The notes beneath the pieces are model-generated. The model did not search any database and was not told where the DNA came from. It was given only the letters and a program-made list of their open reading frames with translations. DNA of 64,000 nucleotides, taken from assembly GCA_023133485.1 (NCBI GenBank), contig JAGLWK010000168.1, positions 687 to 64,686 on the forward strand, given 5' to 3'. This document shows positions 35,303 to 63,982 of the stretch, piece by piece. The stretch comes from Bacteroidales bacterium (GTDB taxonomy: Bacteria > Bacteroidota > Bacteroidia > Bacteroidales > B39-G9). Positions within the stretch are counted from its first letter, which is position 1, and each line of letters opens with the position of its first letter. Both the position numbers and the translations under genes were made by a program.

Positions 35303-35327
35303 GTTCTATAAATTGGCAATAAATTAA

Positions 35328-45833: not shown

Positions 45834-46412
45834 ATGTTTCTTGAAAGCACACCAAAAGGAGCAAATCGACGAGGATGGATTGAAGTAATTGCCGGTTCAA
45901 TGTTTTCCGGTAAAACCGAAGAACTAATAAGAAGGCTTAAAAGAGCTGAATTTGCAAAACAAAAAGTTGAAATATTTAAACCACAAATTGACACAAGATA
46001 TTCAGAAGAAGAAGTTGTTTCGCATGATGAAAATACTATTCGCTCAACTCCTGTAACTAATTCAGGAAATATTTTATTACTTACCAGCGATATTGAAGTA
46101 GTTGGTATTGACGAAGCACAATTTTTTGATGTTAGACTGATTGAAGTATGTAACGAGTTGGCAAACAGGGGTATAAGGGTTATTGTGGCAGGACTTGATA
46201 TGGATTTTAAAGGACAACCATTTGGCCCAATTCCCGGACTTTTTGCTACAGCTGAATATATTACAAAAGTTCATGCTATTTGTGTAAAATGTGGTGACCT
46301 TGCACAGTTTTCACATCGCCTTACAGATACTGATAAATTAGTATTACTTGGCGAAAAAGATATTTATGAACCTTTATGCCGAGGCTGTTATATTGATGCT
46401 ACTAAAAAATAA
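45834..46412 (+). CDS. tdk: Thymidine kinase
   Basis: [32 protein letters not shown] (P-loop), [11 protein letters not shown], and the Zn ribbon pair C..C ... CRGC. Confidence 0.9.
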
Positions 46413-46535: not shown

Positions 46536-48647
46536 ATGAAAAAACAAATTGCTAAATATTTTTTTTCTTATGTCTTTATTCTTATGTTCTGCTGCTCTTA
46601 TGCCAATACTCAGACAATTATCGACAGTCTTGAAAATATATTGAAATTTGCTACAAAAAATGAAAAAACAGAAATTCTAAATAAGCTTTCATTCGAATAT
46701 TCTTCTATATCATTCAAAAAATCTTTTGATTATGGAAATGAAGCATTAGAACTTGCAAAAAAAACAGGGAATAAATTAGAACATGGAAATGCATTGTATA
46801 ATCTCGGTGATGCTTATTATTATCAAAGTAATTATAATAAGGCTTTAAAATATTATCAAAAATCTTTATTAATATTTCAGGAAACAGATAATAAGGAGAA
46901 AATTGCTATTTTACTTAATAGTATTGGACTCATTAATTTTTATTTAGGAAAATATGACGAAGCAATAAAATATTTTAATAAATCATTAAAAATAAATGAA
47001 GAAATTAATAATAAACAAGGAATAGCAATGTGTCTGCAAAATATTGCAATGGTTTATGTGGATTGGAAAAACTATGAAAAAGCATTAGAATATTATAAAG
47101 AAGCATTAGAAATAAATTATGAATTAGATAAAAAGAGCAGAATAGCTGCTTTGCTTCAAAATATTGGAATTATTTATACAAAATATGATAATTATGATAA
47201 AACAATAGAATATTATCAAAAATCGTATGAAATATTCGAGAAAATAGACGATAAACAAGGAATTGCTTGTGTATTAAATAATATTGGAGAAGTTTATAAA
47301 GCATGGAATAAAAATGAAATAGCCCTGAATTACTTTCAAAAATCTTTAGCTTTATTTGAAGAATTAGGTTTTAAATATGGGATAACTGCAAATTTTTATA
47401 ATATTGGGGAAATTTATCTTGGTTGCAGAAAATATAAACTGGCTCTTGAATATTTTGATAAAAGCCTTAATACTGCAAAATCAATTCATTTAAAAGAATA
47501 TATTTTTGATAATTATAATATTTTCTCAGAAACTTATTTTGCAATGGGAAACTACAAAAAAGCATTAGAATACTATAAAAAATATACTACTTTGAAAGAT
47601 TCAGTTTTTTCAGAAGAAACACATAAACAAATAATTGAAATTCAAACCAAATACGAAACCGATAAAAAGAAAAAAGAAATAGAAATACTTAACAAGGAAA
47701 AAGAACTGCACAAAGTAAAAATTGCCCGACAAAATATTATTATATATGCAGTAATTGCCGGATTGTTTTTACTATCAATATTAGCATTACTGATTTATAA
47801 CAGATACAGATACAAACAAAAAGCTAATAAATTATTAACGAGACAAAATAATGAAATTAAATCGCAGAGAGATAAAATAGCAGTACAACAAAAAAATATA
47901 ACTGATAGTATTCAATATGCAAGTAGAATTCAAAATGCTTTATTACCGGAAGATGTTTATATAAAAGAAGTTATTCCTGAGCATTTTATTTTGAATAAAC
48001 CAAAGGATATTGTAAGTGGCGATTTTTACTGGTTAAAACAAATAAAAAATATGCTAATAATTACTGTAGCCGATTGTACAGGACACGGAGTACCGGGCGC
48101 ATTTATGAGTATGCTTGGTGTTTCATTTCTTAATGAAATTGTAAAAGACAAAAATATTATCAGTGCCAGTCAAGCTCTAAATCGGTTAAATGAAAGTGTG
48201 AAAAAGGCACTACACCAAACCGGCAAAGATGATGAAGCAAGAGACGGAATGGATATTGCATTATGTGTAATTAACAAAGATACTTTAGAATTAGAATTTT
48301 CAGGAGCTTATAATCCTGTTTATATTGTTAGGAATAAAGAATTAATACAATTAAAAGGCGATAAAAGACCAATTGGAATACATTTAAAACGTGATATTGT
48401 TTTTACCGATAAACAATTACAATTACAAAAAGGAGATTTAATATACATCTTTTCAGACGGATATATTGACCAATTTGGTGGTGAAAAGGGTACTAAGTTC
48501 AAAGCTACCCCTTTCAAAAAATTATTAGTCAATATTTATGATAAAACAATGGATGAACAAAAAGAAATCCTGAACAATACAATAGAAGAATGGAAAGGAA
48601 ATTACGAACAAATTGACGATATTTTAATAATGGGTATAAAAATCTGA
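46536..48647 (+). CDS. Receptor PP2C phosphatase A: signal/anchor, TPR repeats, TM helix and SpoIIE domain
   Basis: About 8 TPR units (..ALYNLGDAYYYQSNYNKALKYYQKSL.., ..CLQNIAMVYVDWKNYEKALEYYKEAL..). The TM helix is IIIYAVIAGLFLLSILALLIY. SpoIIE motifs are ITDSIQYASRIQNALLP, VSGDFYW, VADCTGHGVPGAFMSMLG, RDGMDIALC, IFSDGYIDQFGG and QIDDILIMGIKI. Confidence 0.85.
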   Translation: MKKQIAKYFFSYVFILMFCCSYANTQTIIDSLENILKFATKNEKTEILNKLSFEYSSISFKKSFDYGNEALELAKKTGNKLEHGNALYNLGDAYYYQSNYNKALKYYQKSLLIFQETDNKEKIAILLNSIGLINFYLGKYDEAIKYFNKSLKINEEINNKQGIAMCLQNIAMVYVDWKNYEKALEYYKEALEINYELDKKSRIAALLQNIGIIYTKYDNYDKTIEYYQKSYEIFEKIDDKQGIACVLNNIGEVYKAWNKNEIALNYFQKSLALFEELGFKYGITANFYNIGEIYLGCRKYKLALEYFDKSLNTAKSIHLKEYIFDNYNIFSETYFAMGNYKKALEYYKKYTTLKDSVFSEETHKQIIEIQTKYETDKKKKEIEILNKEKELHKVKIARQNIIIYAVIAGLFLLSILALLIYNRYRYKQKANKLLTRQNNEIKSQRDKIAVQQKNITDSIQYASRIQNALLPEDVYIKEVIPEHFILNKPKDIVSGDFYWLKQIKNMLIITVADCTGHGVPGAFMSMLGVSFLNEIVKDKNIISASQALNRLNESVKKALHQTGKDDEARDGMDIALCVINKDTLELEFSGAYNPVYIVRNKELIQLKGDKRPIGIHLKRDIVFTDKQLQLQKGDLIYIFSDGYIDQFGGEKGTKFKATPFKKLLVNIYDKTMDEQKEILNNTIEEWKGNYEQIDDILIMGIKI

Positions 48648-48851
48648 AAAATCATAACTCAATAATTTGTTGATGTTATTAAAATTTTTAAAACTGAATG
48701 CAGAAATAATTTTATAATCCCTACTTTATCGGCAGACAGGTGTGGCATTCAATAATTTTATGATAAATCAAATTATATTCCTTGTTTTACTTCCTGAAAT
48801 ACTATATATTTATAAAAAGAAACAATATTTCAAAATTTATAATTTTTAAAA

Positions 48852-51206
48852 TTGAGTTACATAAAAGAAAATAATATTAGGTTCTTAGTTTTAGGAATGT
48901 TATTGTTATTTTACAACATTACATTAAGCCAATCCTATAAAGATTCATTACAAACACAATTAAAATCTGCAACTGATGAAAACAAAATAGAGATTCTTTT
49001 GGAATTATCTATAGAAACTGCTTCCGATTCCATGCCTGAAGCATTAAATTATGGCAAACAAGCTCTACAATTAGCTAATAATATTAAAAATGACAGCCTT
49101 ATTGCTAAATCTTATAATATAATAGGACATTGTTATTCAACAGAACATGATTCTACACATGCCATTGAATATTTTAATAAAGCAATTTCTATTGCTAAAG
49201 ATATTTCTAATAAAAAATTATTAGTATTGGCATTATTTAATAAAGCTAATTTGTTGAATAATCAAGGTTATTATTTAGAAGCTATGTCTGATTTTACTAA
49301 AGCACTGGAAATAGCTGAAAAAAACAAATATTACGAATTACTTTCAAAGATATACAACGAAATTGGTATTATCTATTATAACCAACAAAAATATGATTCT
49401 ACCTTATTTTATTTTAAAAAATCCCTTGCAATCGACAAACAAAATGATGACAAAATACAAATTGCTAAATCATATAATAATATTGGTGTGATATATAAAA
49501 ATATTGGAAAATATGATATTGCTATTCAAAACCAACTGAAAGCACTTAAGATAAGAGAGGAAATAAATGATAGTAATGGTATTGCTATGTCGTATAATAA
49601 TATTGGACAGGTATATTATTACTGGGATAAAAACGATAAATGTATTGAATATTTTAAAAAGGCACTTATTATTCAAACGGAATTAAAAAATAAAAAAGAA
49701 ATCGCAGGACTTAATAATAATATAGGAAGTGTTTATACTGAAATGAAAAATTACCATAAAGCTATTGAGTATTATATAAAAGCCTTGAAATATACCAGGT
49801 ATAATAATTTAAGACAAACTACGGCAGTCCTTTTGGGTAATATTGGTTTAGCTTATGCAGGTTTAAAAGAATTTAACCAATCTTTAAAATATCATTTTAA
49901 ATCACTAAGTCTTTGCAAACAGATTGGACATAAAAAAAGTGAGGTTTATTCGCTAAATAATATCGGAAATACATACAAAGAAATGAAACAATATAACAAA
50001 GCCCTTGAATATTATCAAAAAACAGTAGAAATTTCAAAAGAATTGAACCTGCAACAAAATCTTCTTGATAATTATAAAGCAAGCTATGAAATTTATAAAG
50101 AGATAAATAATTTTAAAAAAGCCTTTGATTATCATATACTTTATACCGAACTTAAAGATTCCATTTTTACACAACAAAGCAATGAACATATAATTGAAAT
50201 TCAAACCAAATACGAAACCGATAAAAAGAAAAAAGAAATAGAAATACTAAACAAAGAAAAAGAACTGCACAAAGTAAAAATTGCCCGGCAGAATATTATT
50301 ATATATGCAGTAATTGCTGTACTGGTTTTACTATCAATATTAGCTTCACTGATTTATAACAGATACAGATATAAACAAAAAGCTAATAAATTATTAACCC
50401 GCCAAAACAATGAAATTAAATCGCAGAGAGATAAAATAGCAGTACAACAAAAAAATATAACCGACAGTATTCAATATGCAAGTAGAATTCAAAATGCTTT
50501 GTTACCGGAAGATGTTTATTTAAAAGAAGTTATTCCTGAACATTTTATTTTAAATAAACCAAAAGATATTGTAAGTGGCGATTTTTACTGGTTAAAACAG
50601 ATAAAAAACAAGCTAATAATTGCTGTTGCTGATTGCACAGGACACGGAGTACCGGGAGCATTTATGAGTATGTTGGGTGTTTCATTTCTCAACGAAATTG
50701 TAAAAGACAAAAATATTATCAGTGCCAGTAAAGCTCTAAACCGTTTAAATGAAAGTGTGAAAAAGGCACTACACCAAACCGGCAAAGAAGATGAAGCCAG
50801 AGATGGGATGGATATTGCATTATGTGTAATTAACAAAGATACTTTAGAATTAGAATTTTCAGGAGCTTATAATCCTGTTTATATTGTTAGGAATAAAGAA
50901 TTAATACAATTAAAAGGTGATAAAAGACCTATTGGAATACATATAAAACGTAATATTGTTTTTACCGATAAACAATTACAATTACAAAAAGGAGATTTAA
51001 TATACATCTTTTCAGACGGATATTGTGATCAAATAGGTGGTGCTAAAAATACTAAATTCAAACCTGGCCCATTCAGAGAATTACTAGTCAGTATTCAGGA
51101 TAAAACAATGAATGAACAAAAAGAAATCCTTGATAAAACCATAGAAAAATGGAAAGGAGATTACGAACAAATTGACGATATTTTAATAATGGGTATAAAA
51201 ATCTGA
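48852..51206 (+). CDS. Receptor PP2C phosphatase B: signal peptide, TPR repeats, TM helix and SpoIIE domain
   Basis: About 9-10 TPR units. The TM plus SpoIIE part is nearly identical to gene A. A TTG start at 48852 gives a proper signal peptide (MSYIKENNIRFLVLGMLLLFYNITLSQS). The first ATG (48897) would leave no n-region. Confidence 0.85.
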   Translation: MSYIKENNIRFLVLGMLLLFYNITLSQSYKDSLQTQLKSATDENKIEILLELSIETASDSMPEALNYGKQALQLANNIKNDSLIAKSYNIIGHCYSTEHDSTHAIEYFNKAISIAKDISNKKLLVLALFNKANLLNNQGYYLEAMSDFTKALEIAEKNKYYELLSKIYNEIGIIYYNQQKYDSTLFYFKKSLAIDKQNDDKIQIAKSYNNIGVIYKNIGKYDIAIQNQLKALKIREEINDSNGIAMSYNNIGQVYYYWDKNDKCIEYFKKALIIQTELKNKKEIAGLNNNIGSVYTEMKNYHKAIEYYIKALKYTRYNNLRQTTAVLLGNIGLAYAGLKEFNQSLKYHFKSLSLCKQIGHKKSEVYSLNNIGNTYKEMKQYNKALEYYQKTVEISKELNLQQNLLDNYKASYEIYKEINNFKKAFDYHILYTELKDSIFTQQSNEHIIEIQTKYETDKKKKEIEILNKEKELHKVKIARQNIIIYAVIAVLVLLSILASLIYNRYRYKQKANKLLTRQNNEIKSQRDKIAVQQKNITDSIQYASRIQNALLPEDVYLKEVIPEHFILNKPKDIVSGDFYWLKQIKNKLIIAVADCTGHGVPGAFMSMLGVSFLNEIVKDKNIISASKALNRLNESVKKALHQTGKEDEARDGMDIALCVINKDTLELEFSGAYNPVYIVRNKELIQLKGDKRPIGIHIKRNIVFTDKQLQLQKGDLIYIFSDGYCDQIGGAKNTKFKPGPFRELLVSIQDKTMNEQKEILDKTIEKWKGDYEQIDDILIMGIKI

Positions 51207-51225
51207 AAAATCATAACTCTATAAT

Positions 51226-54200
51226 TTGTTGAAGTTATTAAAATTTTTAAAATTGAGTTACATAAAAGAAAATAATATTAGATTCTTAGTTTTAGGAATG
51301 TTATTATTATTTTACAACATTGTATTAAGCCAATCTGATGATGTAATATTTAATCATATAACTACCGAAAACGGAATTTCTCATAATAATGTTTATGCCA
51401 TTTGTCAGGATAATAATGGATTCATGTGGTTTGGCACCCAAAATGGGCTTAATATATATAATGGTAAAGATTTTTTCTACTATTTTCATGATATTTTAGA
51501 TTCTAATTCAATTTCATCAAATAATTTTGGTAAAATTCATGTTGATAGGTCCGGCAAAATCTGGTTTGGTACATATGGCGGAGGATTAGATATGTACAAT
51601 CCTCAAAATAATACAATAAAACATTTTAAAAACGAACAAGGTAATAGTAAAAGTCTCTGCAATAATTTTATCTTATGTATTTTTGAAGACAAACAAGGTG
51701 TATTATGGTTTGGAACTGCCAACGGAGGTTTTTGTAAATTTGATCCTATTAATGAATGTTTTATAAATTATAGTTATCAGTTAAATAATCAATTTAGTTT
51801 AAGTAATAATAATGTAAGGGCAATTTGCGAAGACAATAAGGGTTATTTATGGATAGGAACAAGCGATGGATTAAACAGAATGAATAAGGAAACCGGAAGA
51901 TTTAAAAAATATTTTCCTGATAAAAGCAATTCTAATAGTATAAATTCAAAACAAATACAGTCTTTATGTTTTGTTGAACCAAACAAAATATGGATAGGAA
52001 CCAGAAATAATGGTATTAATATTCTTAATATTGAAACAGAACAATTTATTTCATATAAAAATGATCCGGATAATCCGAAAAGTATTAGTGATAATCGTGT
52101 TGATAATATTTTCAAAGATTCTTACGGTACTATATGGATAGGAACTTATAATGGGGGATTAAACAAATTTGACAATAAAACAAAAACATTTATTAATTAC
52201 AAACATTATTCAAATAACACTTTTAGTATAAGTCATAACAGAATAGAATTTATTTTTGAAGACAAGTCAAATAATCTTTGGATTGCTACACGTGGAGGTG
52301 GAATTAATAAATTGGATTTAAAACCCCGAAAATTTACAAATTACTACTATGAACAAAACAATCCAAATTCTATTCCTTATCCTATCATAACTTCAATTGC
52401 TTCTGAGAATAAAGATGTCCTCTGGATTGCTACTGACGGTGGAGGACTTTGTCGCTTTGACAAAAACAAAAATATATTTTTTAATCTTAAACATGAAGAT
52501 GAAAATAAAAATTCTCTAAGTAACAACAGAGTTAGAGCTGTAGTTGTTGATAAATCAGGAATAATATGGATTGGAACTTATCGGGGAGGACTTGATAAAT
52601 TAATATGGAAAAATAATACCAATTATAAATATATTCATTATAAGTATAAAGCTAATGACACGAACTCACTTAATAGTAATCAAGTTAATGTTGTTTATAT
52701 TGATAATAATGAAGATCTATGGATAGGTACAATTAACGGAATATGCAAATTAGTATATTCTAAAGATTCATCAAAAATAAGCTTTAAACGATATACACAT
52801 AATTCTAAAGATCCATTGAGTTTAAGCCACCATTATGTTACCTCAATATTTCATGACCATCTTGGACAACTGTGGATTGGAACATTCGACGGGCTTAATA
52901 AATTTAATCCCGAAACAGAAAAATTTCAACATTATAAAAATATTCCGGGTGATTCAAATAGCATTAACAGTAATCATATTTTAACGATTTTTGAAGACCA
53001 TGCCGGATTTCTTTGGATTGGCACTGAGGATAACGGTATAAATAAATTCAATCAAAAAACACAATCATTCACAGGATATAAAGATGAAAATATTCGCTCG
53101 AACAATATGATTACGGGCATTCTCGAAGATGAAAAGAATAATTTATGGATAAGTAAAGCAAATGGAATCTCAAAATTCAATCCTGTTACACAAAAATTCA
53201 AAAATTATGATGTTACCGATGGATTAGTTGGTAATGGCTACAATCGTAATGCCTGTTTAAAAACCGAAAGTGGAGAAATGTTTTTTGGAAGCATAGCAGG
53301 ATTAACAAGTTTTTTCCCTTCAAAAATTAAAGATAATCCTAATATACCTCCTGTTGTTCTTGTTGATTTTAAAATATTAAATAAATCAATATATAAACAT
53401 CAAAATTCATTTAATGTAAAATGTCCTTATAATATAAAACAAATTAAACTAAGTCATAAAGATTATGTGTTTTCATTTGAATTTGCTGCATTAGATTATA
53501 CAAAATTTGAAAAAAATCTATATGAATATAAAATGGAAGGGTTTGATGATAAATGGATTAATATTGGAAACCGAAGATTTGTTTCATATACAAATTTACC
53601 TCCCGGTAATTATATATTTAAAGTTAAAGCATCAAACAACGATAAGGTTTGGAACGAAAAAGGTTTGTCTGTTAACATACTTGTTAAGCCTCCTTTTTGG
53701 AAAACTAAAGGTTTTTATGCATTAGAAATTCTTTTTACTATATTTTTAGTGTATAGCATTATTATGTATAGAATAAGGAAGTTGCAAAGAGATAAAAAAA
53801 TACTCGAAGATAAAGTTACAGAACGTACTAAGGAAGTCGAATTACAAAAGGAAGAAATTATCAGACAAAGAGATGAAATAACCGATAGTATTTTTTATGC
53901 TAAACATATTCAAACTGCCGTTTCACCATCAAAAGAATTTATTGATAACATTCTTGATGATTATTTTATTTTAGATTTGGCTAAAGGAATTGTAAGTGGC
54001 GATTTCTACTGGATATCTGAAAATGATGAAAAAATAATTGTTGCTGTTGCCGATTGCACAGGTCATGGTGTACCAGGTGCTTTTATGAGTATGATGGGAA
54101 TATTATTTTTAAATAAAATTGTAAATGAAGAAAACATTATAAAACCAAACGAAATTCTTGATAGCTTAAAAAATAACGTTATTTCATCATTACATCAAAA

Positions 54201-54627
54201 TGGGAATACTAGAGAAACCAGCGATGGAATGGATATCTCGCTAATAACAATAGATAAACAAAACAATTTTCTTGAATATACTGGTGCTAATAATTCTATA
54301 TATTTAATCCGTAATAATGAATTTACTGAAATTTATCCCGATAAAATGCCTATTGGTATTTATCATGAAACAGATAAAAAGTTTTCATATCAGAAAATAG
54401 AAATACAATCCGGAGATATGATATATCTTTATACTGATGGTTATATTGATCAATTTGGTGGAGAAAAAGAAAAAAAATATATGTTCAACAAATTCAGAGA
54501 AATATTGTTAAGTATACATAACTATCCTTTAGAATATCAAAAAGAAAAATTAGAAACTGAACATAAAGAATGGAAAAAAAACAATGAACAAGTTGACGAT
54601 ATATTAATTATGGGAATAAAAATTTAG
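51226..54627 (+). CDS. Receptor PP2C phosphatase C: signal peptide, two-component-regulator beta-propeller repeats, Y_Y_Y domain, TM helix and SpoIIE domain
   Basis: Many Reg_prop units (..G.(I/L)W(I/F)GT..GL(N/D)..). The Y_Y_Y region is YEYKMEGFDDKWINIGNRRFVSYTNLPPGNYIFKVKASNNDKVW. The TM helix is ALEILFTIFLVYSIIMY, and the SpoIIE motifs follow. The start is probably the TTG at 51253, homologous to gene B's start. Confidence 0.85.
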   Translation: MLKLLKFLKLSYIKENNIRFLVLGMLLLFYNIVLSQSDDVIFNHITTENGISHNNVYAICQDNNGFMWFGTQNGLNIYNGKDFFYYFHDILDSNSISSNNFGKIHVDRSGKIWFGTYGGGLDMYNPQNNTIKHFKNEQGNSKSLCNNFILCIFEDKQGVLWFGTANGGFCKFDPINECFINYSYQLNNQFSLSNNNVRAICEDNKGYLWIGTSDGLNRMNKETGRFKKYFPDKSNSNSINSKQIQSLCFVEPNKIWIGTRNNGINILNIETEQFISYKNDPDNPKSISDNRVDNIFKDSYGTIWIGTYNGGLNKFDNKTKTFINYKHYSNNTFSISHNRIEFIFEDKSNNLWIATRGGGINKLDLKPRKFTNYYYEQNNPNSIPYPIITSIASENKDVLWIATDGGGLCRFDKNKNIFFNLKHEDENKNSLSNNRVRAVVVDKSGIIWIGTYRGGLDKLIWKNNTNYKYIHYKYKANDTNSLNSNQVNVVYIDNNEDLWIGTINGICKLVYSKDSSKISFKRYTHNSKDPLSLSHHYVTSIFHDHLGQLWIGTFDGLNKFNPETEKFQHYKNIPGDSNSINSNHILTIFEDHAGFLWIGTEDNGINKFNQKTQSFTGYKDENIRSNNMITGILEDEKNNLWISKANGISKFNPVTQKFKNYDVTDGLVGNGYNRNACLKTESGEMFFGSIAGLTSFFPSKIKDNPNIPPVVLVDFKILNKSIYKHQNSFNVKCPYNIKQIKLSHKDYVFSFEFAALDYTKFEKNLYEYKMEGFDDKWINIGNRRFVSYTNLPPGNYIFKVKASNNDKVWNEKGLSVNILVKPPFWKTKGFYALEILFTIFLVYSIIMYRIRKLQRDKKILEDKVTERTKEVELQKEEIIRQRDEITDSIFYAKHIQTAVSPSKEFIDNILDDYFILDLAKGIVSGDFYWISENDEKIIVAVADCTGHGVPGAFMSMMGILFLNKIVNEENIIKPNEILDSLKNNVISSLHQNGNTRETSDGMDISLITIDKQNNFLEYTGANNSIYLIRNNEFTEIYPDKMPIGIYHETDKKFSYQKIEIQSGDMIYLYTDGYIDQFGGEKEKKYMFNKFREILLSIHNYPLEYQKEKLETEHKEWKKNNEQVDDILIMGIKI

Positions 54628-54721
54628 TAAAATAATAAGGAAATCCCGATTCCAGCCTACCGGCAGGCAAGGTAGTAATAGTTAGTAAAACGAAGTTTTG
54701 CTTTACGTTTACTTATTCGGG

Positions 54722-54757
54722 GTTGACGATATATTAATTATGGGAATAAAAATATAA
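54722..54757 (+). pseudogene. Orphan 3' end of a SpoIIE phosphatase gene (VDDILIMGIKI-stop)
   Basis: gttgacgatatattaattatgggaataaaaat (54722-54753) is a perfect 32 bp copy of 54592-54623, the end of gene C. It continues ata-taa like the ends of genes D and E. No ORF body lies upstream. Confidence 0.7.
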
Positions 54758-54793
54758 TATTATAGATAAACTCTAAATAATTCATATTACTTA

Positions 54794-57700
54794 ATGCTTA
54801 GTTTAAAAAAAATATTCTTTTATCTATTACTTATTTTATTTGTTGAATCTGTATTTTTTAACAAAAATTATTGTTATTCACAAACAAAAATTCCTAATAA
54901 CGATACAATTATTGATACTCCCGGTAATCTTGGCGCTCCTTTTATTAGAAATTTTTCACCTAAAGAATATGATGGTAGTTCACAAAATTGGGCTATTGTA
55001 CAAGACAAAAGAGGATTTCTTTATTTTGGTAATAATGACGGTGTTTTGGAATATGATGGAAAAAACTGGAGATTAATTGAAGTTTCAAATAATTCAATTG
55101 TACTTTCACTTTCAATTGATAGTAATGGGACTATATTTGTTGGTGCAATTGGCGAATTTGGTTATATGGCTACTGATTCAACAGGTTTATTATCTTATAT
55201 TTCTTTAAAAAATAAACTTAGCGATGTTAATACCGAATTTATTGATGTTTGTAAAGTTCATGCTACTAAATATGGTGTTTATTTTATTACCAAGAATAAA
55301 ATTTTCAGATGGCACAATGATGAAATTTTTGTAATTCCTGCAAATTTAAAAACCTTATTCGGATTTAATGTATATGATGAACTATTTGTTATTCAGAACG
55401 ATAGCGGTATATATATTGTCGAAAATAATAAATTAATATTATTACCGGGTACAAAAAAAATAGTTAAAGATTATGGCAGGATAATTTTAATTCCATATAC
55501 TGATAATAAAATATTAATATGTACAAGCAAAGAAGGTTTTTTTATTTATGATTTTAAAAAATATATTACTGAAACTACAAAATCATCAAACACAAATTCT
55601 GATAATGAACAAATACAAACGTCTTATATTAAGAAATTTAACACACAAATTGAAGAGTATCTAAAATATAACAGAATATATTCGAGTGTAAAAGTAAACG
55701 ATAACAAATATGCCTTTGCAACATTAAATGGAGGCATTATTATCATGGATAAAAAGGGTAAATTATTACAGCTTATTAATAAAAACAGGGGACTGCAGGA
55801 TAATAGTGTATTTAATATTTATGTTGATAAAAATCAAAATTTATGGGCAGCATTAAATCTTGGGGTCACAATAATAGAAATTAGTTCCCCCATAACAAAA
55901 TTTGATGAACTTAGTGGGCTTGATGGAGTAGTATTATCAACTATTGAACATAAAGGTAAAAGATACGCCAGCACAATGTATGGTTTATATTATTTACCGG
56001 AATATAAAATTAATTCTAAAAATGATAAAAATATTTTCTTACCTGTGTTAAATACACAATCATCATGTTTTGATTTTTATTCTGATAAAAATGTATTATT
56101 AGCATTAGGTAATTCCGGAATTATTTTAATAAATGATACTATTGCAACCAATTTATTTGATATAGGTCAGATATATTGTCATAGCTTATCAAAAAAATTC
56201 CCAAATCATATTTTCTTTGGTATTACAGATGGTTTTGCTTCAATTGAAATTATTTCTTCAAAAGAAAAAAACAAATATAAAAATCACTATAAAAACGAAA
56301 AAATAATACCGGAAGTAAAAGTAAAATTCATTGATAATGGCAAATTTAAAGATATTGAGGAATCAATTATTAAAGTTATTTCTGATAGTGTGGGCGACTT
56401 GTGGTTATCATCATTTCATAATGGAATTATTCATTTAAAATTTCAAGAAAATAATATCTCGGATTATACTATTACACGATATGATACCACTAATGGTTTA
56501 CCTCAACTTAGTGAAAATTATGTTCATAACATTAACAAAAATATAGTAATTGGAACTAAAAAAGGAATTTATAAAGCTATTATAAACCAAAAATCATTTA
56601 ATGATGATTTTAATTTTGAATTTATACCTGATACTTCTTTTGGAAAAATTTATTCTTCCGATTCTATAAGTGTAGAACAAATATATCTTGATAGAAAAAA
56701 TGAAATATGGATAAATTCAAGTATAGGAATAAGTAAAATAACAAAAACAAATAAAAATCCTGATAATAAATATTCATTACCAATAAAAAGAATACCGGTA
56801 AAATCAATATATAAATTATCTATTGATAAAGATAATATTATCTGGATATGCTCAAGTGATGGATTATATCGTTTTAATCCTGTAAATGAAAAAATATGTA
56901 ATATTCCTTTTTATTCCCATATTCGTAAAGTTATAATTGGCAATGATTCTATTATTTTTAATGGAACTTATTTTGTTGATTCACTATTAAAAAATAATTA
57001 TTATACATTATTATCATTTGTTCAACCCAAAAATTTAATTCCTGTTATTCTTTATAAAAATAATTCAATTACATTTGAATATAGTACTACATATTATGAA
57101 AAGGGAGAATCAAATCTGTTTAGATATTTTTTAGTAGGTTTTGATAAACAATGGAGTAACTGGACACCTGAAACAAAAAAAGAATACACAAATTTACCTG
57201 AAGGAACTTATTATTTTAAAGTAGAAGCAAAAAATATTTATAATCTAAATAGCAATGCAGCAATATATAAATTTATAATATTCCCGCCATGGTATAGAAC
57301 TATTGTTGCTTATATTATTTATATTATTCTATCAATCTTATTAATAATTATTATAGTAAAAATTTATACGAGGCGGCTTAAGAATGCGAAAAAACTTTTA
57401 GAAAAAATCGTTAAAGAACGAACAACAGAAATCAGAAAACAGAATACTGAAATATCTCACCAAAAAGAAGAAATTCAACTGCAAGCAGAACATCTGTCAG
57501 AGGTAAACGAAGAACTGGAAAAACTATCAATAGTTGCCAGTAAAACAGATAATGCCATTATTATAATGGATGCTAAAGGTAATTTTGAATGGGTAAATGA
57601 TGGATTTACTAATTTATACGAAATTACAATTGATGAATTAATTAATGATTTTGACAAAAATATTATTAAAGCAACACCTAATACTAATGCACAGGAATTA

Positions 57701-58651
57701 ATTAAATATGCAATACAAAATAAGAAAACTATAAATTATGAATCTTATTTTTTAACAAAAAGCAAGAAAAAGATATGGAATCAAACAACTCTTACACCAA
57801 TACTTGATGAAAAAGGAAATATTAAAAAGTTAATAGCTATTGATAGTGATATTAGCAAATTAAAAAAAGCTGAAGAAAAAATTATTAAACAAAAAGAAGA
57901 AATAACAGATAGTATTGTTTATGCAAAAAGAATACAAAATGCTCTTTTCCCATCAAAAGAAATAATGGATACTACAATTTCACAATATTTTGTACTTGAT
58001 ATGCCTCGCGGAATTGTAAGCGGTGATTTTTATTGGTTTTCAAAAATTAAAGATAAAATTGTAATTTCTGTAGCTGATTGCACCGGACACGGTGTGCCTG
58101 GCGCTTTTATGAGTATGTTGGGAGTTTCATTTTTAAATAAAATTGTAAATGAAAAAGGTATAATTAAACCAAATGAAATTCTTGACAGGTTAAGAAATAA
58201 TGTTATTATCTCATTACATCAAACAGGAGAAGCTGGCGAGGCTAACGATGGAATGGATATCGCACTAATTGCAATTGATAAAAAATCAAATATACTTGAA
58301 TATGCAGGAGCAAATAATTCTGTTTATTTAATTCGTAATAATGAACTAACAGAAATTTTTGCAGACAAAATGCCCATATGTATTTATCGTGAAATAGAAA
58401 CTCCTTTTTCATGTCAGAAAATATCTATTCAAACAGGAGATATGTTATACCTTTTTACCGATGGCTATGTTGACCAATTCGGCGGTTCAAAGGGGAGAAA
58501 ATTTTTATATAAAAATTTTAAAAACTTATTAAAAGAAATTCATAAATTGCCTGTAAATGAACAAAAAAAACTATTAAAAGACAGACTTATAAAATGGAAA
58601 GAAGGCTATGATCAAATTGATGATATATTGATAATGGGAATTAAAATATAA
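54794..58651 (+). CDS. Receptor PP2C phosphatase D: signal/anchor, beta-propeller repeats, Y_Y_Y domain, TM helix, PAS domain and SpoIIE domain
   Basis: The Y_Y_Y region is FRYFLVGFDKQWSNWTPETKKEYTNLPEGTYYFKVEAKNIYN. The TM helix is IVAYIIYIILSILLIIIIV. The PAS part is SIVASKTDNAIIIMDAKGNFEWVNDGFTNLYEITIDELI...IWNQTTLTPILDEKGNIKKLIAIDSDIS. SpoIIE motifs are intact. Confidence 0.85.
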   Translation: MLSLKKIFFYLLLILFVESVFFNKNYCYSQTKIPNNDTIIDTPGNLGAPFIRNFSPKEYDGSSQNWAIVQDKRGFLYFGNNDGVLEYDGKNWRLIEVSNNSIVLSLSIDSNGTIFVGAIGEFGYMATDSTGLLSYISLKNKLSDVNTEFIDVCKVHATKYGVYFITKNKIFRWHNDEIFVIPANLKTLFGFNVYDELFVIQNDSGIYIVENNKLILLPGTKKIVKDYGRIILIPYTDNKILICTSKEGFFIYDFKKYITETTKSSNTNSDNEQIQTSYIKKFNTQIEEYLKYNRIYSSVKVNDNKYAFATLNGGIIIMDKKGKLLQLINKNRGLQDNSVFNIYVDKNQNLWAALNLGVTIIEISSPITKFDELSGLDGVVLSTIEHKGKRYASTMYGLYYLPEYKINSKNDKNIFLPVLNTQSSCFDFYSDKNVLLALGNSGIILINDTIATNLFDIGQIYCHSLSKKFPNHIFFGITDGFASIEIISSKEKNKYKNHYKNEKIIPEVKVKFIDNGKFKDIEESIIKVISDSVGDLWLSSFHNGIIHLKFQENNISDYTITRYDTTNGLPQLSENYVHNINKNIVIGTKKGIYKAIINQKSFNDDFNFEFIPDTSFGKIYSSDSISVEQIYLDRKNEIWINSSIGISKITKTNKNPDNKYSLPIKRIPVKSIYKLSIDKDNIIWICSSDGLYRFNPVNEKICNIPFYSHIRKVIIGNDSIIFNGTYFVDSLLKNNYYTLLSFVQPKNLIPVILYKNNSITFEYSTTYYEKGESNLFRYFLVGFDKQWSNWTPETKKEYTNLPEGTYYFKVEAKNIYNLNSNAAIYKFIIFPPWYRTIVAYIIYIILSILLIIIIVKIYTRRLKNAKKLLEKIVKERTTEIRKQNTEISHQKEEIQLQAEHLSEVNEELEKLSIVASKTDNAIIIMDAKGNFEWVNDGFTNLYEITIDELINDFDKNIIKATPNTNAQELIKYAIQNKKTINYESYFLTKSKKKIWNQTTLTPILDEKGNIKKLIAIDSDISKLKKAEEKIIKQKEEITDSIVYAKRIQNALFPSKEIMDTTISQYFVLDMPRGIVSGDFYWFSKIKDKIVISVADCTGHGVPGAFMSMLGVSFLNKIVNEKGIIKPNEILDRLRNNVIISLHQTGEAGEANDGMDIALIAIDKKSNILEYAGANNSVYLIRNNELTEIFADKMPICIYREIETPFSCQKISIQTGDMLYLFTDGYVDQFGGSKGRKFLYKNFKNLLKEIHKLPVNEQKKLLKDRLIKWKEGYDQIDDILIMGIKI

Positions 58652-58658
58652 TATTGTT

Positions 58659-61052
58659 ATGGTATTCAAAATTATATCAAAATATACTTTATTGCTTATA
58701 TTATTTTTTTATTATTTCTATGCTTTTAGTTATAATAATCCAAAAATTGATAATCTTCAAAAGCAATTAAAATCGGCAGAGGAAAACCAAAAAGCAGAGA
58801 TCTATAATAAACTTGCTATAGCATATAAAGGAATCTCTCCCGAAAAAATTATTGAATATGCTAAAAAAGCTCTCGAATTGTCTAAAACATCCGGTAATAA
58901 ATTAATTGAAGCAAATGCTTTATTGAATATTGGGATGGGTTATTTTCATCTTGGCAATTATGATAAAACATTAGAATATTATTTAGAATCATCTGATATA
59001 ATGGATAGTATTGATAATAAGAATGGTTCTGCAGAATGCTTGATTGGTTTGGGAAACGTTTATATGCAACTAAATAAACTAAACAAAACTTTAAATTATT
59101 ACAAGGAAGCTTTAATAATCAAGACAGAAATTAAAGATTCAATAGGAATAGCTGCAATTTTAAATAATATCGGAGTTGTATATCTCGAATTGGAAGACAA
59201 TAAAACAGCAATGGAATATCACGTAAAATCTTTAAAAATAAAAGAAATAATTGGAGATTTAATAGGTACAACTTATTCCTTAAACAATATTGGATATACT
59301 TATTTCAATTTGAATGACTATAATAAGTCTCTTGATTGTTATTTTAGAGCATTGAAAATAAGAGAAAGAATCGGGAGCGAGAAAGAAATAGCTGTTTCTT
59401 TATTTAATATCGGAGAAACATATATTATATTAAAAAATTATAATGAAGCATTATTATATCTTGAAAGATCATTAAAATTATCCAAAAAATCAAAATCCAA
59501 ATATTTAACAAAAAGCATTTATAAAATTTATTCAGATTTATATGAAAATATCGAAAATAATACGAAAGCTTTAGAATATTATAAATTGTATTCAACATTA
59601 AAAGATAGTCTTTATTCAGAACAAAGCAATAAGAAAATTGCTGAATTACAGGTTCAATTTGATTTGGAAAAAAAACAAAAAGAAATAGAGTTATTAACAA
59701 AAGATAAAGATGCTGAGATAAAAAAACGAAAATTAATTAGTTATTCATTTATTCTTGGATTTATTCTGATTTTATTATTTACTTTTTTAATATACAGCAG
59801 GTTTCGTGTAAAGAAAAAAGCTAATATTTTATTAGAAAAGAAAAATTTAGAAATTAATCAGCAAAAAGAAGAAATCCAGGCTCAAGCAGAAAACCTTTCG
59901 GAAATAAACGAAGAGCTGGAAAAACTTTCAATAGTTGCCAGCAAAACAGATAATGCAATTATTATTATGGATGCAGAAGGAAATTTTGAATGGTTAAATG
60001 ATGGATTTACTAATTTATACGAACTTACAATTGATGAATTAATAAATGATTTTGGCAAAAATATTACTAAAGCAACACCTAATCCTAATGCAAAGAAATT
60101 AATTAAATACTGCATAGAAAATAAAGAAACTATTAATTACGAATCTTATTATGTAACAAAAAGCCAAAAAAAGATATGGAATCAAACAACTCTTACACCA
60201 ATACTTGATGAAAAAGGAAATATTAAAAAGTTAATAGCTATTGATACTGATATTAGCAAATTAAAAAAAGCTGAAGAAAAAATTTTTAAACAAAAAGAAG
60301 AAATAACCGATAGCATTATTTATGCTAAAAGAATACAGAATGCTCTTTTCCCATCAAAAGAAATAATGAATACTACAATTCCGCAATATTTTGTACTTGA
60401 CATGCCTCGCGGAATTGTAAGCGGTGATTTTTATTGGTTTTCAAAAATTAAAGATGAAATTGTAATTTCTGTAGCTGATTGCACCGGACACGGTGTGCCG
60501 GGTGCATTTATGAGCATGCTTGGAGTAACATTTTTAAATAAAATTGTAAATGAAAAAGGCATAATTAAACCAAATGAAATTCTTGACAGGTTAAGAAATA
60601 ATGTTATTACATCATTACATCAAACAGGAGAAGCCGGTGAGGCTAACGATGGAATGGATATCGCACTAATTAATATCGACAAAAAATCAAACATACTTGA
60701 ATATGCAGGAGCAAACAATTCTGCTTATTTAATTCGTAATAGTGAATTAACAGAAATTTTTGCAGACAAAATGCCCATAGGTATTTATCGTGAAATAGAA
60801 ACTCCTTTTTCATGTCAGAAAATATCTATTCAAACAGGAGATATGTTATACCTTTTTACTGATGGTTATGTTGACCAGTTCGGCGGTTTAAGGGGAAGAA
60901 AGTTTTTATATAAAAATTTTAAAAACTTATTAAAAGAAATTCATAAATTACCTGTGAGTGAACAAAATAATTTGTTAAAAGATAAACTATTAGAATGGAG
61001 AGGAAAGTATGAACAAATTGATGATATATTGATAATGGGAATAAAAATATAG
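58659..61052 (+). CDS. Receptor PP2C phosphatase E: anchor, TPR repeats, TM helix, PAS domain and SpoIIE domain
   Basis: TPR units such as ..ALLNIGMGYFHLGNYDKTLEYYLES.. The TM helix is ISYSFILGFILILLFTFLIY. The PAS plus SpoIIE part is about 90% identical to gene D. The gene starts 7 nt after the gene D stop. Confidence 0.85.
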   Translation: MVFKIISKYTLLLILFFYYFYAFSYNNPKIDNLQKQLKSAEENQKAEIYNKLAIAYKGISPEKIIEYAKKALELSKTSGNKLIEANALLNIGMGYFHLGNYDKTLEYYLESSDIMDSIDNKNGSAECLIGLGNVYMQLNKLNKTLNYYKEALIIKTEIKDSIGIAAILNNIGVVYLELEDNKTAMEYHVKSLKIKEIIGDLIGTTYSLNNIGYTYFNLNDYNKSLDCYFRALKIRERIGSEKEIAVSLFNIGETYIILKNYNEALLYLERSLKLSKKSKSKYLTKSIYKIYSDLYENIENNTKALEYYKLYSTLKDSLYSEQSNKKIAELQVQFDLEKKQKEIELLTKDKDAEIKKRKLISYSFILGFILILLFTFLIYSRFRVKKKANILLEKKNLEINQQKEEIQAQAENLSEINEELEKLSIVASKTDNAIIIMDAEGNFEWLNDGFTNLYELTIDELINDFGKNITKATPNPNAKKLIKYCIENKETINYESYYVTKSQKKIWNQTTLTPILDEKGNIKKLIAIDTDISKLKKAEEKIFKQKEEITDSIIYAKRIQNALFPSKEIMNTTIPQYFVLDMPRGIVSGDFYWFSKIKDEIVISVADCTGHGVPGAFMSMLGVTFLNKIVNEKGIIKPNEILDRLRNNVITSLHQTGEAGEANDGMDIALINIDKKSNILEYAGANNSAYLIRNSELTEIFADKMPIGIYREIETPFSCQKISIQTGDMLYLFTDGYVDQFGGLRGRKFLYKNFKNLLKEIHKLPVSEQNNLLKDKLLEWRGKYEQIDDILIMGIKI

Positions 61053-61114
61053 GTAATTAATAAGTACTTAAAGTGAACTAAAGTTTTGAGTGCCTAAACT
61101 GCCTACTAGCAGGC

Positions 61115-61245
61115 CAATGTCAATAAGTTAAGGTTTAAATAATTTAATAGATTCCTGCTTTCGCAGGAATGACATGTAAAAGTAACTTTTTAAAAGCTAT
61201 TGTCATTCCGCACTTGATGCGGAATCTGTTAACTTATTGACATTG
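61115..61245. mobile_element. MITE-like element, TIR family CAATGTCAATAAGTTAA, copy 4 (best preserved)
   Basis: Perfect 17 bp TIRs, caatgtcaataagttaa (61115-61131) and ttaacttattgacattg (61229-61245). The internal hairpins are attcctgctttcgcaggaat and attccgcacttgatgcggaat. The flanks contain GCAGGC on both sides, inside a ctgcct...aggcagg palindrome. Confidence 0.75.
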
Positions 61246-61516
61246 ACCGGCAGGCAGGAGTCATTTAATATGGATAATAAGTAACTAATCACAGTTTCTC
61301 TTTTGTAGTTTTACTATGGAGAAGGAGCAATATAACAGACTGTCTTGATTTTTCAAGGAAATACTTATAAAAAATATTAAAAACATGAGTAATTTCGTTA
61401 GCAATTAGTAAGAAATCGAAACTCTAAGTACTTTAGGCACTCTATAAAAACCAAGCTTTTATTTTGAGCCGAAGTATTAGGCACTGAGTAATTACAAATA
61501 TAGAAAAGTAATAATA

Positions 61517-63982
61517 ATGCTTGTATATAAAATTGAAAAAATTAATGATATTATTAGTGGTAATCTGAATGGAAATGGAAAAAGTTTTATAAAATATCTT
61601 GCAACTGATAGCAGGAACATTATTTCTCCTGATGAGTCATTGTTTTTTGCATTAACCGGTGAAAGATATAACGGGCATAACTTTATTGAGGAACTTTATA
61701 AACAAGGTGTAAGAAATTTTGTTGTAAGTTCAATACCTGTTAATTATTCTGATTTTAAATTCTCAAATTTTATTCTTGTCGAAAATACTTTATTGGCACT
61801 ACATAAATTATGCTCTTTTCACCGCTCACAATTTAAAATACCTGTAATTGGAATTACCGGAAGTAACGGAAAAACCATAATTAAAGAATGGTTGTATCAA
61901 ATGCTCGCTGAGGATAAAAAAACTGTGAAAAGCCCTAAAAGTTATAATTCTCAGATAGGAGTCCCACTTTCTGTCTGGTTATTAGATAATATTTATGAAG
62001 TGGCAATATTTGAAGCAGGTATTTCGTTGCCCGGTGAAATGGAAAAACTTCAAAAAATCATACAACCTAATATCGGAATATTTACTAACATCGGAAATGC
62101 ACATCAGGAAAATTTTACTTCATTAGAACAAAAAACAGATGAAAAATTAAAACTCTTTTATAATTGTGAAATACTTATATATTGCAAAGACCATAAAATA
62201 ATTGATGACAAGATTAATGAAACAGAAATATTAAAAAATACGAAAATTTATAGCTGGTCAAAAAATCAAAATGCTAATCTTGAAATAAAACAAATAATAA
62301 AAAAGTCAAGTTCAACAGAAATATCAGGAATTTACAAATCAAAAAAAATAAATATTAAAATACCGTTTATTGATAATGCATCAATTGAAAATGCCATACA
62401 TGTGTGGCTGTTATTACTTTTGTTTGATAACGAAACCAAGCTTATTGAAAAAAGAATGAAATCTTTGTCACCTATTGCAATGAGGTTGGAGCTTAAAGAA
62501 GGAATTAATAACTGTACAATAATTAATGATTGTTATAATTCTGATATCGAATCAATAAACATAGCACTTGACTTTCTAAAACAACAAAAACAACATAAAA
62601 AATATACTATTATATTATCTGATATTTTGCAAAGTGGATTACCAAATTCAATATTATACAGGAATGTTGCAAAACTTGTAAATAAAAAAAAGATTAATAG
62701 GATAATCGGAATAGGAGAATCAATATCAGCTAATTCTAATTTGTTTTTTGATGAAAAAGTGTTTTTTAATACTACTGATGAATTTCTTAATAAATTCGAT
62801 AAAAGTAGTTTTAATAATGAAGCAATACTTTTAAAAGGTTCAAGACAATTTACATTTGAAAAAATATCAGTTGTTTTGCAAAAAAAGTCTCATAGAACTG
62901 TTCTTGAAATTAATCTTAATGCATTAACACATAATCTTAATTATTTTAGGTCAAAATTAAAACCAAAGACAAAAATAATGGCTATGGTAAAAGCCCTTTC
63001 GTATGGTAGCGGAACATTTGAAATTGCTAATCTTTTACAACATCAAAATGTTGATTATCTCGGAGTTGCTTTTGTTGATGAAGGAATTAACCTGAGAGAA
63101 AACGGAATAACAACACCAATACTGGTAATGAATCCTGAGGAACAAGCATTTAAATCAATGATTGAATATGACCTTGAACCTGAAATATATAATTTTAGAA
63201 TCCTTGAACTTTTTAACGAAACTTTAAATCTATCCGACAAAAATTCATATCCTGTTCATATTAAGATTGATACAGGAATGCATCGTCTTGGATTTATTAA
63301 AGATGATATTCCGCAGTTAATAAATTATTTAATTAATAATCAAAGGATAAAAATAAAATCGGTGTTCTCTCATTTGGCAGGAGGTGATGAGGAAATGCAT
63401 GATACTTTTACCAAACAACAATTTGATAAATTTGAAGAAATATCTGAACAAATAAAACAAAATTTTAATTACCCGATAATCACTCATATCCTTAATTCAT
63501 CAGGCATTGAACGATTTCCCGAAAAACAATACGAAATGATTCGCCTTGGAATAGGATTATATGGAATTAGTTCAACAAATCAGGATAAACTGCATAATGT
63601 TAGTTCGTTAAAAAGTCATATTTTACAGATAAAACAAGTTTCAAATAGTGATACTATCGGATATAGCAGAAAAGGAATTGTTACAAGAGATTCAATTATT
63701 GCTACAATACCAATCGGTTATGCCGATGGTTTAAGCCGACAACTAAGCAATGGGAAAGGTAAAGTGTTAATAAACGGAAAATTTGCTCCCATTATCGGGA
63801 ATATTTGCATGGATATGTGTATGGTAGATATTACAGATATTGAAGCATCAGAAGGTGATATGGCAATATTTTTCAGTGATGATTATCCGATTACTAAAAT
63901 GGCAAAACAACTTAATACAATTCCTTATGAAATACTTACAAGTATCTCAAGTAGGGTTAAACGTGTGTATTATCATGAATAA
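61517..63982 (+). CDS. murF: Bifunctional UDP-N-acetylmuramoyl-tripeptide--D-alanyl-D-alanine ligase (MurF) / alanine racemase (Alr)
   Basis: The N-terminal half has Mur ligase motifs (GITGSNGKTIIKEWL, FEAGIS.PGEM, IFTNIGNAHQENF). The C-terminal half is an alanine racemase (AMVKALSYGSG PLP-Lys region, HIKIDTGMHRLGF, FSHLAGGDE, GIGLYG, GYADGLSR). The frame is continuous at 821 aa. Confidence 0.85.
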   Translation: MLVYKIEKINDIISGNLNGNGKSFIKYLATDSRNIISPDESLFFALTGERYNGHNFIEELYKQGVRNFVVSSIPVNYSDFKFSNFILVENTLLALHKLCSFHRSQFKIPVIGITGSNGKTIIKEWLYQMLAEDKKTVKSPKSYNSQIGVPLSVWLLDNIYEVAIFEAGISLPGEMEKLQKIIQPNIGIFTNIGNAHQENFTSLEQKTDEKLKLFYNCEILIYCKDHKIIDDKINETEILKNTKIYSWSKNQNANLEIKQIIKKSSSTEISGIYKSKKINIKIPFIDNASIENAIHVWLLLLLFDNETKLIEKRMKSLSPIAMRLELKEGINNCTIINDCYNSDIESINIALDFLKQQKQHKKYTIILSDILQSGLPNSILYRNVAKLVNKKKINRIIGIGESISANSNLFFDEKVFFNTTDEFLNKFDKSSFNNEAILLKGSRQFTFEKISVVLQKKSHRTVLEINLNALTHNLNYFRSKLKPKTKIMAMVKALSYGSGTFEIANLLQHQNVDYLGVAFVDEGINLRENGITTPILVMNPEEQAFKSMIEYDLEPEIYNFRILELFNETLNLSDKNSYPVHIKIDTGMHRLGFIKDDIPQLINYLINNQRIKIKSVFSHLAGGDEEMHDTFTKQQFDKFEEISEQIKQNFNYPIITHILNSSGIERFPEKQYEMIRLGIGLYGISSTNQDKLHNVSSLKSHILQIKQVSNSDTIGYSRKGIVTRDSIIATIPIGYADGLSRQLSNGKGKVLINGKFAPIIGNICMDMCMVDITDIEASEGDMAIFFSDDYPITKMAKQLNTIPYEILTSISSRVKRVYYHE

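Follow-up and report, generated by a model that had tools for sequence, protein, structure and literature searches.

The window analysed here is a 64,000-nucleotide (nt) stretch of a Bacteroidales bacterium genome, and this report concerns an array of five consecutive plus-strand genes, A to E, encoding putative membrane receptor phosphatases, together with a sixth gene of the same kind, F, which lies outside the array. By sequence comparison, the phosphatase domains of all six proteins are assigned to the SiaA subfamily of PP2C phosphatases, and a small STAS-like protein of the SiaC family is proposed as their probable substrate. The array itself is an unusually long member of a widely annotated, known design.

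Gene array and domain architecture

The features of the locus are collected in Table 1. The five open reading frames (ORFs) of the array were found open on the plus strand at exactly the coordinates given in a preliminary description of this DNA (46536-61052), and the sixth member announced there was recovered as well, with a match to the DUF4154/YfiR-like family (71 bits) besides a SpoIIE match. The short gaps reported between genes also held, namely 7 nt between D and E, and 46 nt between B and C if gene C starts at the TTG codon at 51253. Genes B and C probably both start at TTG (48852 and 51253); the public gene calls use an internal ATG (769 and 1109 amino acids, aa), by which the charged start of the signal peptide is lost.

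Under Pfam, all six proteins matched SpoIIE (PF07228) with 73-83 bits against a cut-off of 25. TPR families were found in A, B and E, with PAS_9 in addition in E; gene C showed Reg_prop in seven stretches (209 bits) and Y_Y_Y (71 bits), and gene D weaker Reg_prop (45 bits) and Y_Y_Y (40 bits) matches together with PAS_9. In the hydropathy profiles, each of A to F showed a hydrophobic, signal-like N-terminus and, further inside, a single hydrophobic helix, and between the membrane helix and the PP2C domain sits a helical linker, which includes the PAS domain in D and E. From hydropathy, the sensors are predicted to face the periplasm and the phosphatases the cytoplasm. SpoIIE, Reg_prop, Y_Y_Y, TPR and PAS were all matched as previously described, and the shared plan (signal or anchor, large sensor, one transmembrane (TM) helix, PAS in two genes, PP2C) was confirmed by Pfam and hydropathy, with its topology as predicted above, as were the two unrelated sensor classes of the array, TPR in A, B and E and Reg_prop with Y_Y_Y in C and D.

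Table 1. Positions of the receptor phosphatase genes, their predicted parts, and the repeated segments of the array (window coordinates, except for the last row, where positions are those of the named loci).
Feature	Position (nt)	Strand	Details
Gene A	46536-48647	+	ORF, 703 aa (Pfam, NCBIfam, hydropathy); signal peptide aa 1-23; TPR sensor aa ~63-351; TM helix aa 401-419 (nt 47736-47792)
Gene A, SiaA-like PP2C	47841-48644	+	aa 436-703; Pfam, NCBIfam SiaA C-terminal match 211 bits
Gene B	48852-51206	+	ORF, 784 aa, TTG start; signal peptide aa 1-27; TPR sensor aa ~55-400; TM aa 483-501
Gene B, SiaA-like PP2C	50397-51203	+	aa 516-784; Pfam, NCBIfam
Gene C	51253-54627	+	ORF opens at 51226, likely TTG start 51253; 1133/1124 aa (51226/51253); signal peptide; double beta-propeller (Reg_prop x7); Y_Y_Y nt 53494-53682; TM nt 53710-53775
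Gene C, SiaA-like PP2C	53821-54624	+	Pfam, NCBIfam
Gene D	54794-58651	+	ORF, 1285 aa; signal peptide; divergent propeller sensor; Y_Y_Y nt 57095-57280; TM nt 57302-57358; PAS nt 57551-57856
Gene D, SiaA-like PP2C	57845-58648	+	Pfam, NCBIfam
Gene E	58659-61052	+	ORF, 797 aa; signal peptide; TPR sensor nt 58779-59585; TM nt 59736-59792; PAS nt 59952-60257
Gene E, SiaA-like PP2C	60246-61049	+	Pfam, NCBIfam
Gene F (outside the array)	16182-18029	+	ORF, 615 aa; signal peptide; YfiR-like/DUF4154 sensor nt 16293-16691; TM nt 17136-17192; SiaA-like PP2C nt 17223-18026
Output cassette, copy 1	47556-48697	+	Last TPR/coiled coil, TM, PP2C and 50 nt past the stop of A
Output cassette, copy 2	50115-51256	+	3' part of B and 50 nt downstream
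PAS-PP2C cassette, copy 1	57449-58650	+	D, from ~30 aa after the TM helix to the stop
PAS-PP2C cassette, copy 2	59850-61051	+	E
Leader and signal-peptide segment	48837-48934	+	Start of B; 98 nt, 95% identical to 51238-51335 at the start of C
Relic PP2C 3' end	54722-54769	+	C-D gap; encodes VDDILIMGIKI*; ~90% identical to the end of C (54592-54638)
ABC gene beside SiaB-SiaC	L005 19614-22697; L087 10444-13518; L088 8258-11332; L089 and L090 10440-13508		In other genomes

SiaA-type phosphatases and their candidate partners

The best match of the PP2C domain among solved structures was 6K4E (E 1.7e-35), the PP2C domain of Pseudomonas aeruginosa SiaA (PMC7647112), and the next best was SpoIIE (8e-8). 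The 6K4E alignment runs from the DSxxYAxxIQxAxLP helix to the C-terminal DDI and takes in DCxGHGVPGA, MD and TDGxxDQxGG. Consistent with this, the C-terminal 265 positions (~377-657) of the NCBIfam model for SiaA, NF038263, were matched by all six proteins with 183-211 bits. The RsbU/SpoIIE-type label given to these domains in the preliminary description is therefore replaced, while its statement that the metal-binding motifs are intact is borne out, since VADCTGHG, DGMD, (S/T)DGY and DDIL are invariant across the six-way alignment of A to F. The metal-binding Asp motifs align with the same motifs in both 6K4E and SpoIIE, and from family and intact motifs A to F are predicted to be Mn2+/Mg2+-dependent phospho-Ser/Thr phosphatases.

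Possible partner genes were sought in the window by comparing with Pfam all 41 ORFs of 100 aa or more that do not lie inside a longer ORF (three others do), and ten of the 41 with NCBIfam as well. No STAS, RsbW-like, sigma, SiaB or SiaC gene was found among the 41, in agreement with the earlier statement that the 64 kb hold no STAS, anti-sigma kinase or sigma gene. The surroundings of relatives were sampled as 80 loci around SiaA-like PP2C genes in GTDB representative genomes, with a reach of 10 kb. Partners were counted with separate SiaB and SiaC models, because SiaB-SiaC fusion proteins merge joint searches, and the calls were checked with Pfam; for STAS, a model built from Pfam-verified STAS genes was used. 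Proteins of ~950 aa resembling AsmA came up as STAS candidates and were rejected as false matches on the Pfam result.

A SiaC gene with or without SiaB was present within 10 kb of the PP2C gene in 11 of the 80 loci, often directly adjacent, and a classical STAS gene in one (L076, Chlorobiota, PF01740). Altogether, SiaB-family kinase and SiaC-family phosphoprotein genes are the adjoining partners of relatives in 13 loci. On long contigs, two homologs of gene C are each followed by one hypothetical gene and then by genes for DUF6272 and SiaC (PF09345), and DUF6272 passes the NCBIfam model for SiaB-family kinases (171 bits against a cut-off of 85). Three tandem receptor phosphatases precede two SiaC genes and a double SiaB in one locus (L036), and three receptor phosphatases accompany three SiaB-SiaC pairs and a SiaB-SiaB-SiaC fusion gene in another (L029). 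In the alignment of Bacteroidales SiaC proteins, Asn67 is kept and Thr or Ser stands at the position of T68 of the Pseudomonas protein, the residue phosphorylated by SiaB and dephosphorylated by SiaA (PMC7647112).

These observations point to a mechanism in which outside signals would change the activity of a receptor phosphatase, which would then dephosphorylate a small STAS-like protein of the SiaC family at its conserved Thr/Ser (YFN[T/S]SSSK). The opposing activity, which keeps that residue phosphorylated, would come from a SiaB-family kinase, several receptors would feed one SiaB/SiaC switch encoded elsewhere in the genome, and the unphosphorylated SiaC would then bind an effector. Some STAS-fold phosphoprotein, be it SiaC or a classical STAS protein, is quite likely the substrate of the array phosphatases; the narrower proposal that it is a SiaC-family protein is favoured with less confidence, as the better-supported choice. 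The target called unknown in the preliminary description has a good candidate in SiaC, given the SiaA-like PP2C domain and the SiaB/SiaC genes beside relatives.

The absence of a local substrate, also remarked on there, is true for the 64-kb window but is not a peculiarity of it. SiaB-SiaC pairs without a phosphatase gene within 10 kb were found in Salinivirga (complete genome CP013118.1) and other Bacteroidales, so that an array without linked substrate appears to be the norm for the family, and judging from these genomes it is common in this group for the phosphatase genes to lie apart from the gene of their probable substrate. Of the earlier picture of a multi-input battery converging on an unlinked target, the lack of a partner in the window stands, and the target is the part that has changed.

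Several results weigh against SiaC as the substrate. The likeness to SiaA lies in the PP2C part only: the equivalog cut-off of 700 bits for the whole NF038263 protein was missed by all six, and no HAMP domain was found in any of A to F with Pfam. Because they score below this cut-off and lack the HAMP architecture, A to F are placed in the SiaA subfamily by sequence but are not SiaA orthologs. Like P. aeruginosa SiaA, they are predicted to be membrane-anchored PP2C proteins, and the alignment covers the whole PP2C domain together with the DSxxYAxxIQ helix before it. SiaA, however, has two membrane-spanning regions and a HAMP domain (PMC7647112), whereas A to F carry large TPR, propeller/Y_Y_Y or YfiR-like sensors and one internal TM helix, some of the array proteins have PAS, and siaB, siaC and siaD are not linked to the array. 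A tblastn search with SiaB and SiaC gave no match in the window or in the 10 kb beyond it, the range over which this organism was searched, and the presence of SiaB/SiaC in it is an assumption; a SiaC profile search did not single out a copy belonging to it among the 120 matches listed of about 8000. The adjacency evidence comes from a minority of loci, as about 69 of the 80 show no partner within 10 kb. In addition, the SiaA-like PP2C of L076 adjoins the classical STAS gene, and Bacteroidales that have SiaB-SiaC also carry classical STAS genes (L089/L090), so the SiaA-like subfamily may also use STAS substrates.

The last of these points bears on the classical RsbU partner switch, in which the receptors would dephosphorylate an unlinked RsbV/SpoIIAA-like STAS protein and thereby free a sigma factor from an RsbW-like kinase. 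The array domains do share the Pfam family SpoIIE with RsbU, RsbP and SpoIIE of Bacillus subtilis, which are likewise regulated PP2C phosphatases acting on a STAS-fold phosphoprotein; a PF01740 STAS gene does lie 3' of the receptor PP2C gene in L076, and the STAS genes of L089/L090 encode single-domain proteins. This explanation is nevertheless unlikely, since STAS is adjacent in one locus where SiaC is adjacent in 11, the PP2C domain is far nearer SiaA than SpoIIE (in round figures, E 2e-35 against 1e-7), and no RsbW-type kinase or sigma factor was found among the neighbour genes scanned. The regulatory domains also differ from those of the B. subtilis proteins, and no RsbV, RsbW or sigma gene lies near the array.

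Less probable again is that A to F are general Ser/Thr phosphatases opposing Hanks-type kinases, or that each receptor has a private substrate, so that no shared hub exists. Hanks-type Ser/Thr kinases are frequent partners of PP2C phosphatases (PMC9239204), Pkinase domains take the place of PP2C in one homolog of the C sensor (P0019), and the many loci without a partner nearby would fit. Against this, no Pkinase gene was found in the window with Pfam, the domains fall in the SpoIIE/SiaA branch and not with PF00481/Stp1 (the Stp1 model matched them with E about 1e-3), and the tandem receptors of L029 and L036 share one SiaB/SiaC cluster.

With SiaC retained as the favoured substrate, a wider and more tentative proposal may be made, on which we would not count: one conserved, free-standing SiaB-SiaC switch could be the common hub for many unlinked receptor phosphatases in Bacteroidales, running parallel to two-component systems with the same TPR and propeller sensor modules and having an output other than cyclic di-GMP synthesis, and arrays could be the birthplace of new sensor-output combinations. 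A 126-aa SiaC is 70-98% identical across many Bacteroidales genomes. In Pseudomonas, SiaC binds the diguanylate cyclase SiaD as its effector; no GGDEF/diguanylate cyclase gene was found beside the SiaC genes examined in Bacteroidales. The neighbours of SiaC are heterogeneous (Ig-like proteins of ~570 aa, an amidase, an ABC-type protein, a LytTR pair). A gene of ~1022-1027 aa with ABC_tran and ABC2_membrane domains recurs beside SiaB-SiaC in several Bacteroidales/Bacteroidota genomes (Table 1), which could reflect conserved synteny or mark a candidate effector, and this ~1022-aa ABC-type neighbour is a candidate for the output of the hub. No paper linking SiaB/SiaC or receptor PP2Cs to Bacteroidota was found in the library searched.

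Sensor modules and history of the array

The sensor of gene C matched the periplasmic domain of Bacteroides hybrid two-component proteins with E 5e-115 (4A2L) and, for a second structure, E 4e-97, and the sensor of gene D matched 4A2L with E 1e-17 only, mainly across the Y_Y_Y part. Compared with BT4663-type hybrid two-component sensors (4A2L/4A2M, 3V9F), C is thus homologous and D distant, and the order of propellers, Y_Y_Y and TM helix is the same, but the output is PP2C and not histidine kinase, receiver and AraC; no HisKA, HATPase, Response_reg or HTH_18 was found in C or D with Pfam. Positions 6-394 of the NCBIfam model NF053520 (FimS) were matched with 109-151 bits by A, B and E, over the N-terminal TPR part that precedes the TM helix. 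These three proteins resemble the FimS-type TPR sensor histidine kinases of Porphyromonas gingivalis in this region, while their cytoplasmic output is PP2C instead of a histidine kinase and the scores are far under the equivalog cut-off of 600 bits. Among the matches listed, the closest relatives of the C sensor (44-46% identity) are both PP2C-coupled and histidine-kinase-coupled. Because relatives of C are kinase-coupled too and the TPR sensors match FimS, the sensor modules of the array appear from sequence to be shared with two-component systems, which is a widespread pattern.

A propeller/Y_Y_Y module driving a phosphatase had been presented as unusual, and this did not hold up. A search with gene C gave about 8000 matches, and most of the 120 listed have the Reg_prop/Y_Y_Y/SpoIIE architecture; homologs of C are already annotated, under the JGI name 'ligand-binding sensor domain-containing protein/serine phosphatase RsbU' and under NCBI names. 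Of the 57 complete family members from the 80 loci, 27 have TPR sensors and 16 have Reg_prop with Y_Y_Y, while a receiver domain is present in four, SBP_bac_3 in four and PAS in three; no architecture of this phosphatase family is commoner in Bacteroidota than TPR-PP2C and propeller/Y_Y_Y-PP2C. A further subtype of 735-769 aa, with TPR, PP2C and a C-terminal receiver (L024, L043, L044, L054 and L061), has one or two SiaC genes directly 3' without SiaB and often lies near a ~570-aa protein with weak Ig-like matches. Tandem runs of PP2C genes were observed in the 82 other loci as two genes in nine and three genes in four, and the run of five is the longest in the sample of about 80 loci. The nearest relatives of the array PP2C domains come from Bacteroidales, Salinivirgaceae and Tenuifilaceae metagenome-assembled genomes, at no more than 59% identity. 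A profile search for further PP2C paralogs of this genome returned matches from other organisms only, mostly receiver-PP2C proteins and truncated gene calls with PP2C only.

Within the array, long blocks are shared between neighbouring genes. The block common to A and B is 1144 nt long and 91.2% identical (synonymous divergence, dS, 0.27; ratio of nonsynonymous to synonymous divergence, dN/dS, 0.22), and that common to D and E, comprising PAS and PP2C, is 1203 nt long and 91.4% identical (dS 0.29, dN/dS 0.19), whereas other gene pairs are 65-74% identical. Just upstream of the D/E block the identity abruptly falls to about 35%, where the sensor of D is a propeller and that of E is TPR. The 98-nt segment shared by B and C opens 15 nt ahead of the TTG of B. 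Since dN/dS is about 0.2 in both blocks, both copies of each cassette have been kept under purifying selection since the exchange. When the six domains were placed in a tree together with 90 outside sequences, two genome-specific clades emerged, (A,B,F) and (C,D,E), whose mutual distance equals their distance to other genomes. The array probably grew from these two lineages of old paralogs, and a later duplication or gene conversion clearly appears to have set one output cassette behind different sensors recently. The suggestion that the sensor modules are interchangeable is borne out by the PAS-PP2C cassette, which stands behind a propeller in D and behind TPR in E. What is new at this locus is the longest run in the sample and the clear recent cassette exchange, both of which are modest points.

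The gaps between the genes hold further traces. Between C and D, the end of C (its last ~12 codons and the stop) is present twice, once on each side of an insert of ~94 nt. The A-B gap matches the B-C junction except for an additional stretch of about 158 nt, and this piece special to the A-B gap is flanked by a 19-nt direct repeat (aaaatttttaaaa[c/t]tga) at 48679-48697 and 48837-48855. The motif CGGCAGRCARG occurs three times in the 64 kb, against 0.01 expected, always on the plus strand and always in gaps of the array: A-B (48730-48740), C-D (54661-54671) and downstream of E (61248-61258). The pieces bearing it (about 95-160 nt) resemble small insertions; no convincing common element was found when the three gap pieces were aligned, and no Rfam family was found in the window, these pieces included. 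Downstream of E lies an inverted repeat (61102-61258) with 30-nt arms that are 83% complementary and 97 nt apart, with two small hairpins inside; it resembles a miniature inverted-repeat transposable element (MITE) or a repetitive extragenic palindrome (REP), and its right arm holds CGGCAGRCARG.

A scan for sigma-70-type promoters found 156 against 124 expected and is uninformative because the DNA has 27% GC, and terminator-like matches were found only inside genes. The Bacteroidetes -7 motif TAnnTTTG was absent from all array gaps. Among the gaps examined it was seen only between gene F and the next gene, gldH (18148-18615; gap 118 nt), a gliding/type IX secretion system (T9SS) lipoprotein gene.

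That the array is an assembly artefact joining dispersed paralogs is very improbable: the source is a short-read metagenome and the internal repeats measure 1.1-1.2 kb, but these reach only 91% identity and the longest stretches of exact match in them measure 110 and 79 nt, unique sequence stands at every junction, tandem runs of two or three such genes are common in other genomes, and two public records, ENA ZHAN22-2_SAMN18200500 scaffold_48 (124,763 bp) and NCBI DAOVLP010000016.1 (GCA_030631205.1), agree with the window base for base (0 mismatches over 22 kb and 12 kb). As both records may go back to one set of reads, their agreement speaks for consistency and is not independent proof, and the view that the array is not obviously mis-assembled is supported, not proven.

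Surroundings and significance

The array is flanked upstream by a thymidine kinase gene (45834-46412) and downstream by a MurF-alanine racemase fusion (61517-63982), in which MurF-like ligase domains and alanine racemase are joined in one 821-aa ORF. Elsewhere in the window, three pairs resembling toxin-antitoxin or defence systems were observed: HEPN with nucleotidyltransferase (7132-7829), AbiEii with DUF6577 (34706-35861) and a HigB-like toxin with an HTH/M78 (IrrE-like) protein (43058-44490). A free-standing GAF-domain protein of 155 aa is encoded at 37646-38113. Markers of Bacteroidota in the window are GldH, T9SS sorting domains and a TonB-dependent receptor with a CarboxypepD_reg domain.

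The preliminary description was correct and careful as an observation; it overstated the novelty of the locus and missed the likely partner, SiaB/SiaC. No new kind of system is revealed, and the value of the locus lies in genome annotation and in the choice of experiments. It is a clean example of building and diversification in a large, experimentally unstudied class of Bacteroidota signalling proteins, in which one phosphatase output is joined to sensor modules that elsewhere drive histidine kinases. The absence of a diguanylate cyclase gene beside the SiaC genes examined raises the question of what SiaC controls here, and the recognition of the SiaA type gives a testable target, phosphorylated SiaC, for hundreds of genes that stand as 'orphan SpoIIE/RsbU' in Bacteroidota annotations.

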